Assembly: GCF_003334765.1 (NCBI RefSeq)
Contig: NZ_QOWT01000011.1
Strand: one strand, 5' to 3'
DNA length: 64,000 nt
DNA from: Escherichia coli
GTDB taxonomy: Bacteria; Pseudomonadota; Gammaproteobacteria; Enterobacterales; Enterobacteriaceae
Shown here: positions 42,473 through 45,145 of the stretch, piece after piece
How positions within the stretch are numbered: position 1 is the stretch's first letter
How the letters are laid out: the number at the start of each line of letters is the position of its first letter
Notes under the pieces: model-generated
Database searches by the model: none
What the model was told of the DNA's origin: nothing
What the model saw: the letters and a program-made list of their open reading frames with translations, nothing else
Program-made: the position numbers and the translations under genes

Positions 42473-45145
42473 ATGACAGATGTAACGATTAAAACGCTGG
42501 CCGCAGAGCGACAGACCTCCGTGGAACGCCTGGTACAGCAATTTGCTGATGCAGGTATCCGGAAGTCTGCTGACGACTCTGTGTCTGCACAAGAGAAACA
42601 GACTTTGATTGACCACCTGAATCAGAAAAATTCAGGCCCGGACAAATTGACGCTGCAACGTAAAACACGCAGCACCCTTAACATTCCTGGTACCGGTGGA
42701 AAAAGCAAATCGGTACAAATCGAAGTCCGCAAGAAACGCACCTTTGTGAAACGCGATCCGCAAGAGGCTGAACGCCTTGCAGCGGAAGAGCAAGCGCAGC
42801 GTGAAGCGGAAGAGCAAGCCCGTCGTGAGGCAGAAGAATCGGCTAAACGCGAGGCGCAACAAAAAGCTGAACGTGAGGCCGCAGAACAAGCTAAGCGTGA
42901 AGCTGCTGAACAAGCGAAACGTGAAGCTGCGGAAAAAGACAAAGTGAGCAATCAACAAGACGATATGACTAAAAACGCCCAGGCTGAAAAAGCCCGCCGT
43001 GAGCAGGAAGCTGCAGAGCTCAAGCGTAAAGCTGAAGAAGAAGCGCGTCGTAAACTCGAAGAAGAAGCACGTCGCGTTGCTGAAGAAGCACGTCGTATGG
43101 CGGAAGAAAACAAATGGACTGATAACGCGGAACCGACTGAAGATTCCAGCGATTATCACGTCACTACTTCTCAACATGCTCGCCAGGCAGAAGACGAAAG
43201 CGATCGTGAAGTCGAAGGCGGCCGTGGCCGTGGTCGTAACGCGAAAGCAGCGCGTCCGAAGAAAGGCAACAAACACGCTGAATCAAAAGCTGATCGTGAA
43301 GAAGCACGCGCAGCAGTACGTGGCGGTAAAGGCGGAAAACGTAAAGGTTCTTCGCTGCAGCAAGGCTTCCAGAAGCCTGCTCAGGCCGTTAACCGTGACG
43401 TTGTGATCGGCGAAACTATCACCGTTGGCGAACTGGCGAACAAGATGGCGGTTAAAGGCTCTCAGGTCATCAAAGCGATGATGAAACTGGGCGCAATGGC
43501 AACCATCAACCAGGTTATCGATCAGGAAACCGCACAGCTGGTTGCTGAAGAGATGGGCCATAAAGTTATCCTGCGTCGTGAAAACGAGCTGGAAGAGGCG
43601 GTAATGAGCGACCGTGACACGGGTGCTGCGGCTGAACCGCGCGCGCCGGTTGTGACCATCATGGGTCACGTTGACCACGGTAAAACCTCTCTGCTGGACT
43701 ACATTCGTTCAACGAAAGTGGCCTCTGGCGAAGCGGGCGGCATTACCCAGCACATTGGTGCATACCACGTTGAAACTGAAAACGGCATGATCACCTTCCT
43801 GGACACCCCGGGGCACGCCGCGTTTACTTCAATGCGTGCTCGTGGTGCGCAGGCAACGGACATCGTAGTCCTGGTTGTTGCTGCCGACGACGGTGTGATG
43901 CCGCAGACCATCGAAGCAATCCAGCACGCGAAAGCGGCGCAGGTACCGGTGGTGGTTGCAGTGAACAAGATCGATAAACCAGAAGCTGATCCGGATCGCG
44001 TTAAGAACGAACTCTCCCAGTACGGCATCCTGCCGGAAGAGTGGGGCGGTGAAAGCCAGTTCGTACACGTATCTGCGAAAGCGGGTACCGGTATCGATGA
44101 ACTGCTGGACGCTATCCTGCTGCAGGCGGAAGTTCTGGAGCTGAAAGCGGTACGTAAAGGTATGGCGAGCGGTGCGGTTATCGAATCCTTCCTCGATAAA
44201 GGTCGTGGTCCGGTTGCTACCGTTCTGGTACGTGAAGGTACTCTGCACAAGGGCGATATCGTTCTGTGTGGCTTCGAATACGGTCGTGTTCGTGCGATGC
44301 GTAACGAACTGGGTCAGGAAGTGCTGGAAGCGGGTCCGTCCATTCCGGTGGAAATCCTCGGCCTGTCCGGCGTACCGGCTGCGGGTGATGAAGTTACCGT
44401 TGTACGTGACGAGAAGAAAGCGCGTGAAGTTGCACTCTATCGTCAGGGTAAATTCCGCGAAGTTAAACTGGCGCGTCAGCAGAAATCTAAACTCGAGAAC
44501 ATGTTCGCCAACATGACCGAAGGCGAAGTTCACGAAGTGAATATCGTCCTGAAGGCAGACGTACAGGGTTCTGTCGAAGCGATCTCCGACTCCTTGCTGA
44601 AACTGTCTACTGACGAAGTTAAAGTGAAGATCATCGGTTCTGGCGTAGGTGGTATCACCGAAACCGACGCCACCCTGGCTGCGGCGTCCAACGCCATCCT
44701 GGTTGGCTTTAACGTACGTGCTGATGCCTCTGCACGTAAAGTGATTGAAGCGGAAAGCCTGGATCTGCGTTACTACTCCGTCATCTATAACCTGATTGAC
44801 GAAGTGAAAGCGGCGATGAGCGGTATGCTGTCTCCGGAACTGAAACAGCAGATTATCGGTCTGGCGGAAGTTCGTGACGTGTTCAAATCGCCGAAATTTG
44901 GTGCCATCGCAGGCTGTATGGTTACCGAAGGTGTGGTTAAACGTCACAACCCGATCCGCGTTCTGCGTGACAACGTGGTTATCTACGAAGGCGAGCTGGA
45001 GTCCCTGCGCCGCTTCAAAGATGACGTTAACGAAGTCCGTAACGGTATGGAATGTGGTATCGGCGTTAAGAACTACAACGACGTCCGCACTGGCGATGTG
45101 ATCGAAGTATTCGAAATCATCGAGATCCAACGTACCATTGCTTAA
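42473..45145 (+). CDS. infB: Translation initiation factor IF-2 (890 aa)
   Basis: Full ORF; G-domain motifs GHVDHGKT / DTPGH / NKID; Ala/Glu/Arg/Lys-rich N-terminal low-complexity region. Confidence 0.95.

Follow-up and report, generated by a model that had tools for sequence, protein, structure and literature searches.

Tandem translation of IF2 from Escherichia coli infB: accessibility and conservation of the internal start codons

Tandem translation of the Escherichia coli infB gene yields three isoforms of translation initiation factor IF2, which begin at codons 1, 158, and 165 of a single 890-codon open reading frame (ORF). It was described by Plumbridge et al. (1985), Nyengaard et al. 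(1991), and Sacerdot et al. (1992), as these studies are reported in the papers that cite them. In-frame internal starts are likewise known in cheA, clpB, speA, and mrcB, each of which gives a long and an N-terminally truncated form from one ORF by independent initiation. Unlike these genes, infB has two internal starts seven codons apart and a weak Shine-Dalgarno (SD) sequence set in an A-rich stretch that is unusually open and bordered by repeats. As in E. coli, at least two IF2 forms differing at the N-terminus are found in Bacillus, Pseudomonas, Streptococcus, and Sarcina (PMC12297416). Domain I (residues 1-157), present in the long isoform and missing from the short ones, is described in the literature as binding NusA and affecting DNA-damage and replication-restart as well as cold phenotypes. 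The sequence analyzed here, a stretch of 64,000 nucleotides (the window), carries this same locus and shows no difference from the described system in sequence, in the number of codons (890), in the positions of the internal starts (158 and 165), or in the isoform masses. The internal starts of infB in the window are a correct finding and an already known one, of textbook standing.

The infB locus and its start codons

According to the ORF list and its translation, infB occupies positions 42473..45145 on the plus strand and consists of 890 codons followed by a stop. The gene, its starts, and the flanking repeats are located as follows:

42473..45145 (+), infB coding sequence for full-length IF2-1/IF2-alpha, based on the ORF list, the translation, and the RefSeq annotation of identical sequence.
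42460..42475 (+), canonical RBS of IF2-1, with the SD sequence AGGAAGGA at 42460-42467 and ATG codon 1 at 42473-42475.
42944..42946 (+), GTG codon 158, where IF2-2/IF2-beta begins, a protein of 733 aa with a calculated mass of 79.74 kDa; based on sequence, literature, an N-terminal peptide, and the presence of GTG in 81/81 sequences.
42965..42967 (+), ATG codon 165, where IF2-3/IF2-gamma (or beta') begins, a protein of 726 aa with a calculated mass of 78.93 kDa; based on sequence, literature, an N-terminal peptide, and the presence of ATG in 68/81 sequences.
42781..42938 (+), upstream imperfect tandem repeats of 24 nt (8 aa) found by Tandem Repeats Finder, an A/E/R/K/Q-rich helix-like segment that ends 6 nt before GTG158.
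43025..43108 (+), downstream tandem repeats of 24/21 nt found by Tandem Repeats Finder, a second charged segment that is present in all isoforms.

A previous sequence-only reading of the window had assigned the GTG at 42944-42946 to codon 158 and the ATG at 42965-42967 to codon 165; both assignments are exact (42473 + 157×3 and 42473 + 164×3), and they agree with the IF2-2 and IF2-3 starts given in the literature. The same reading had placed these starts immediately after a block of Ala/Glu/Arg/Lys-rich repeats. This stands for the upstream array, which ends 6 nt before the GTG; the description was incomplete, as the second array at 43025-43108 follows. With arrays on both sides, GTG158 and ATG165 fall within a brief Q/N/D-rich linker, itself free of repeats, that joins the two charged repeat blocks.

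Calculation from the translated window gives isoform masses of 97.35 kDa for IF2-1, 79.74 kDa for IF2-2, and 78.93 kDa for IF2-3. The name IF2-gamma was at one time applied to a 65-kDa fragment. We considered it as a possible misnomer here and rejected this, as the 78.8-kDa isoform is termed IF2-gamma in PMC12297416; elsewhere the short forms are named IF2-2/IF2-3 or beta/beta'. The calculated masses agree with those in print, which are 97.3, 79.7, and 78.8 kDa (PMC3334882).

A 1.1-kb stretch of the nusA-infB junction from the window occurs in every one of the 5,426 complete E. coli genomes, and many E. coli chromosomes match it with 100% identity. In chromosomes with the identical sequence, infB follows nusA and is labeled 'translation initiation factor IF-2', and its annotated neighbors are tRNA-Met (metY), rimP, nusA, rbfA, truB, and rpsO; the gene thus stands in the metY-rimP-nusA-infB-rbfA-truB context of the IF2 orthologue. 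Directly upstream of infB, in the same operon, the window carries nusA (40961-42448), while the NusA-binding Domain I of IF2 corresponds to 42473-42943. The RefSeq/PGAP annotation records a single CDS at infB and leaves the internal starts unrecorded, so that a pipeline relying on annotation alone would miss them. The 60 nt around GTG158 and ATG165 are 100% identical in 5,302 of the 5,426 genomes, and in one variant that we sampled the sole change is a synonymous AGC to AGT substitution at codon 159, which leaves both starts intact. The search with the junction (42300-43400) returned 5,434 E. coli matches, of which one is on a plasmid; one genome carries the region in five places. These look like occasional extra copies of an essential-gene region.

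Several RNA elements of the operon were recognized with Rfam, including the metY tRNA, the rimP leader, and the S15 leader on the plus strand (40198-40271, 40363-40463, and 46745-46859, respectively), and the small RNA SraG on the minus strand (47089-47260), antisense between rpsO and pnp. The infB-rbfA spacer contains a match to naRNA4 (nucleoid-associated noncoding RNA 4, CssrE) at 45162-45232 (+), which scores 68.1 bits (gathering score, 59.5). The Rfam search with gathering scores returned no known RNA family at the internal start site, and a promoter scan of 42400-43200 gave no sigma-70-like match. Three terminator-like hairpins predicted in the same region lie on the minus strand and are within the number expected from shuffled sequences; they were discarded.

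Start-like codons are common in this gene: infB has 45 in-frame ATG, GTG, or TTG codons, which make up 5% of its codons, and 11 adjacent pairs of them are at most seven codons apart. By itself, the GTG158/ATG165 pair is not beyond chance expectation. Its significance derives from prior experimental knowledge and from the accessibility and conservation signals measured here.

Accessibility and Shine-Dalgarno pairing at the internal starts

To describe the mRNA around the internal starts, we calculated local-folding (RNAplfold-type) opening energies for the 30-nt stretch from −17 to +12 at each infB codon and scored SD pairing against the 16S 3' end with a short and a long anti-SD sequence, the latter over all 890 codon positions. 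Two elements of the internal site are used in this section:

42927..42980 (+), A-rich stretch predicted to be unstructured, which holds both internal starts and has opening energies of 2.8-4.9 kcal/mol against a gene mean of 10.7.
42929..42934 (+), weak SD-like sequence GCGGAA in codons 153-154, 9 nt upstream of GTG158, with a predicted anti-SD duplex of −3.5 kcal/mol.

The opening energy over infB averages 10.7 ± 2.8 kcal/mol, a value that, like all those given here, is a thermodynamic prediction for naked RNA and ignores ribosomes translating from ATG1. The eight lowest values among the 890 codons belong to codons 159-166 (2.8-3.8 kcal/mol), with codon 158 at 4.85 kcal/mol, and 42927-42980 is the most accessible predicted stretch of the entire infB mRNA. 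Of the 45 start-like codons in frame, the real starts are precisely the three most accessible, in the order 165, 1, and 158. The open stretch consists of 47-50% A, which is partly due to the amino-acid composition of the encoded segment (K, E, N, Q, and D). In both the MFE and the centroid fold of 42850-43050, the stretch with the starts is largely unpaired and is flanked by paired repeat regions. The openness recurs in related species: the accessibility minimum of the whole gene lies at most 10 codons from the equivalent of GTG158 in 59 of 68 species with complete genes. The next most accessible stretches of infB, at 43118-43132 (codons 216-220) and 43274-43276 (codon 268), have opening energies of 4.1-5.3 kcal/mol; codons 216-220 and 268 include no start-like codon, and no further isoform is therefore suggested.

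SD pairing gives a different picture. Predicted duplex energies are −3.5 kcal/mol for GTG158 and −2.3 to −3.1 kcal/mol for ATG165, whereas ATG1, preceded by AGGAAGGA, reaches −6.5 kcal/mol with the short anti-SD, the most favorable duplex at any start-like codon in frame. With the longer anti-SD, GTG158 ranks 440th and ATG165 528th among the 890 codon positions. No strong SD complementarity was found 5-10 nt upstream of either GTG158 or ATG165, and the site does not qualify as a canonical SD-led RBS. A check for an SD-like sequence upstream of 42944, proposed along with the initial reading, did not come out in its favor: it yields the weak GCGGAA (−3.5 kcal/mol), which is not discriminating. 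We therefore rejected SD strength as an identifying signal, as neither anti-SD separates the internal starts from other codons. The synonymous sites of the GCG and GAA codons that form GCGGAA are nevertheless invariant in 81/81 Enterobacterales sequences; judged by this conservation, GCGGAA may have a role in initiation.

Conservation of the internal starts in Enterobacterales

One genome per species was scanned, which gave 80 infB loci from other Enterobacterales, mostly from Enterobacteriaceae with a few from Erwiniaceae and Pectobacteriaceae. The context of GTG158 (GCG GAA AAA GAC AAA GTG AGC) was traced within this order. The codon alignment shows GTG at position 158 in 81 of 81 sequences, among which the 80 related loci are phylogenetically close and two (L078 and L079) are identical, leaving one independent sequence fewer; the remaining conserved Val columns use GTG in 0-89% of sequences. 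The ATG at position 165 is kept in 68 of the 81 and absent from 13 (L015, L041, L044, L057, L060, L064, L066, L069, L070, L073, L075, L078, and L079), where it is replaced by AAA, CAA, GAA, ATT, TCG, GTA, or GCA, mostly without a nearby start-like codon. The sequences without ATG165 include those of Trabulsiella, Yokenella, Mangrovibacter, Shimwellia, and Affinibrenneria. Judged from these sequences, the species that lack ATG165 probably make a single short isoform.

Conservation around GTG158 extends to synonymous positions, with the following core:

42929..42955 (+), synonymous-constraint core at codons 153-161 (GCG GAA AAA GAC AAA GTG AGC AAT CAA), surrounding GTG158 and comparable in extent to a 30S footprint.

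Within codons 1-420, synonymous entropy in 11-codon windows has its minimum centered on codon 156, with a value of 0.12 compared with 0.48 on average (sd 0.13). The synonymous sites of codons 153-155, 157-159, and 161 are invariant. For instance, CAA161 is invariant despite the preference of infB for CAG (30 CAG and 16 CAA codons), and AAT160 is found in 90% of the sequences despite a preference for AAC (25 vs. 4). In related enterobacteria, the internal start and its surroundings are conserved beyond the protein requirement.

The two identical loci come from Affinibrenneria salicis (NZ_VYKJ01000001.1), which carries two inverted nusA-infB copies, L078 (397476-401768, reversed) and L079 (673361-677653), that are identical over 4,293 bases. 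The pair reflects a large inverted duplication of recent origin, encompassing an essential translation-factor gene, or else an artefact of the assembly.

Independent initiation within infB and its alternatives

Published genetics and N-terminomics bear directly on the origin of the short IF2 forms. The mutations g474c (GTG to GTC) and t494c (ATG to ACG), which correspond to window positions 42946 and 42966, together remove IF2-2 and IF2-3 and leave IF2-1 unharmed, whereas the del1 allele, in which the first start is gone and 32 nt are kept upstream of the IF2-2 start, still makes IF2-2 and IF2-3 (Madison et al., 2012, PMC3334882). On the infB message, initiation at the two internal starts is thus independent of ATG1, and 32 nt of upstream sequence suffice. 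With an ochre codon at position 161, IF2-3 synthesis persists once Rho polarity is relieved. TRAINSPOTTER, a deformylation-assisted N-terminomics approach, detected infB N-terminal peptides in MG1655 at residues 1-13, 158-175, and 165-175, and the 158-175 peptide starts with Met where the DNA encodes Val158. Comparison of these published data with the window shows that the peptides 158-175 and 165-175 equal its translation apart from the Met in place of Val158. Since Met at a GTG-encoded Val158 can arise by initiation alone, the short form is an initiation product. In its entries ahead of the coordinates, row 729 of the TRAINSPOTTER supplement also assigns Ribo-RET to an alternative GTG start in infB.

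We conclude, with a probability of about 0.97, that the window encodes the E. coli infB tandem-translation system, in which one mRNA and one frame give IF2-1 from ATG1, IF2-2 from GTG158, and IF2-3 from ATG165. The sequence-only reading had come to the same architecture and is borne out by the 100% identity to E. coli infB itself, by the published genetics, in which g474c and t494c abolish the short forms, and by the N-termini, which in MG1655 fall for the short forms at residues 158 (as Met) and 165.

Three other readings of the site were weighed against tandem translation. That GTG158 and ATG165 are ordinary Val and Met codons in a coincidental position would fit the abundance of start-like codons in infB (45 of 890, with 11 close pairs), the SD pairing upstream of both codons, which is no better than the gene average, and the single CDS in RefSeq. 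Yet N-terminal peptides begin with Met at both codons, and the short isoforms are lost when the start codons are mutated, so that published N-terminomics and mutagenesis have already refuted this reading; the exclusive use of GTG at position 158 (81/81 sequences), in contrast to the mixed codons of other Val columns, and the coincidence of the synonymous-constraint and accessibility peaks at the site, also speak against it, and we assign it a negligible probability. Practically no more can be granted to proteolysis, by which the short forms would be fragments cut in a disordered linker near residue 158, a reading that is likewise already refuted. The short IF2 form was in fact originally suspected to be proteolytic, and intrinsic disorder has been described for the N-terminal region, which would make it protease-prone; but a Met replacing the encoded Val158 needs initiation, del1 yields IF2-2 and IF2-3 without the IF2-1 start, g474c with t494c abolishes both while IF2-1 is unharmed, and IF2-3 continues to be made with an ochre codon at position 161.

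Internal initiation could also take place on a separate shorter transcript, with its 5' end generated within infB by a promoter or by processing, rather than by entry on the full-length mRNA. The metY-nusA-infB operon has multiple promoters and processing sites, and a nearby 5' end would expose the site. Against this, the region 42400-43200 is without a sigma-70-like promoter match, the synonymous constraint is confined to about −15 to +12 relative to the GTG, an RBS-sized rather than promoter-sized span, and the promoters given in the introduction of the operon paper all lie near metY. We consider a separate transcript very improbable.

For tandem translation from the full-length message, the analyses presented here suggest the following mechanism. 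The short IF2 forms would arise by independent de novo initiation within the infB coding sequence, with 30S subunits binding directly to the A-rich stretch at approximately 42927-42980, which appears to have been kept structure-free in evolution and is flanked by two GC-richer repeat blocks. The weak but invariant GCGGAA 9 nt upstream of the GTG may assist, while strong SD pairing would not be involved; the constrained region, roughly −15 to +12 around the GTG, would then approximate the 30S footprint. A contribution of ribosomal protein S1, as a putative binder of the A-rich leader, is plausible. At even odds, we extend this mechanism to a more specific proposal, part of which was reportedly anticipated by Laursen et al. 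in Genes Cells in 2002: the internal entry site of infB would be set mainly by the maintained A-rich structure-free stretch and not by the SD sequence, only GTG158 would be universally selected in Enterobacterales, and the repeatedly lost ATG165 would be a dispensable by-product.

Beyond quantitative results, the analysis adds nothing new to the biology of the locus. Its modest added value is that the internal start stands out by its accessibility and by synonymous constraint but not by SD strength, and that GTG158 is invariant in the sampled Enterobacterales whereas ATG165 is lost in about one sixth of the sequences. These results concern a classic bacterial gene with several proteoforms, among which only the long form carries the NusA-binding Domain I.
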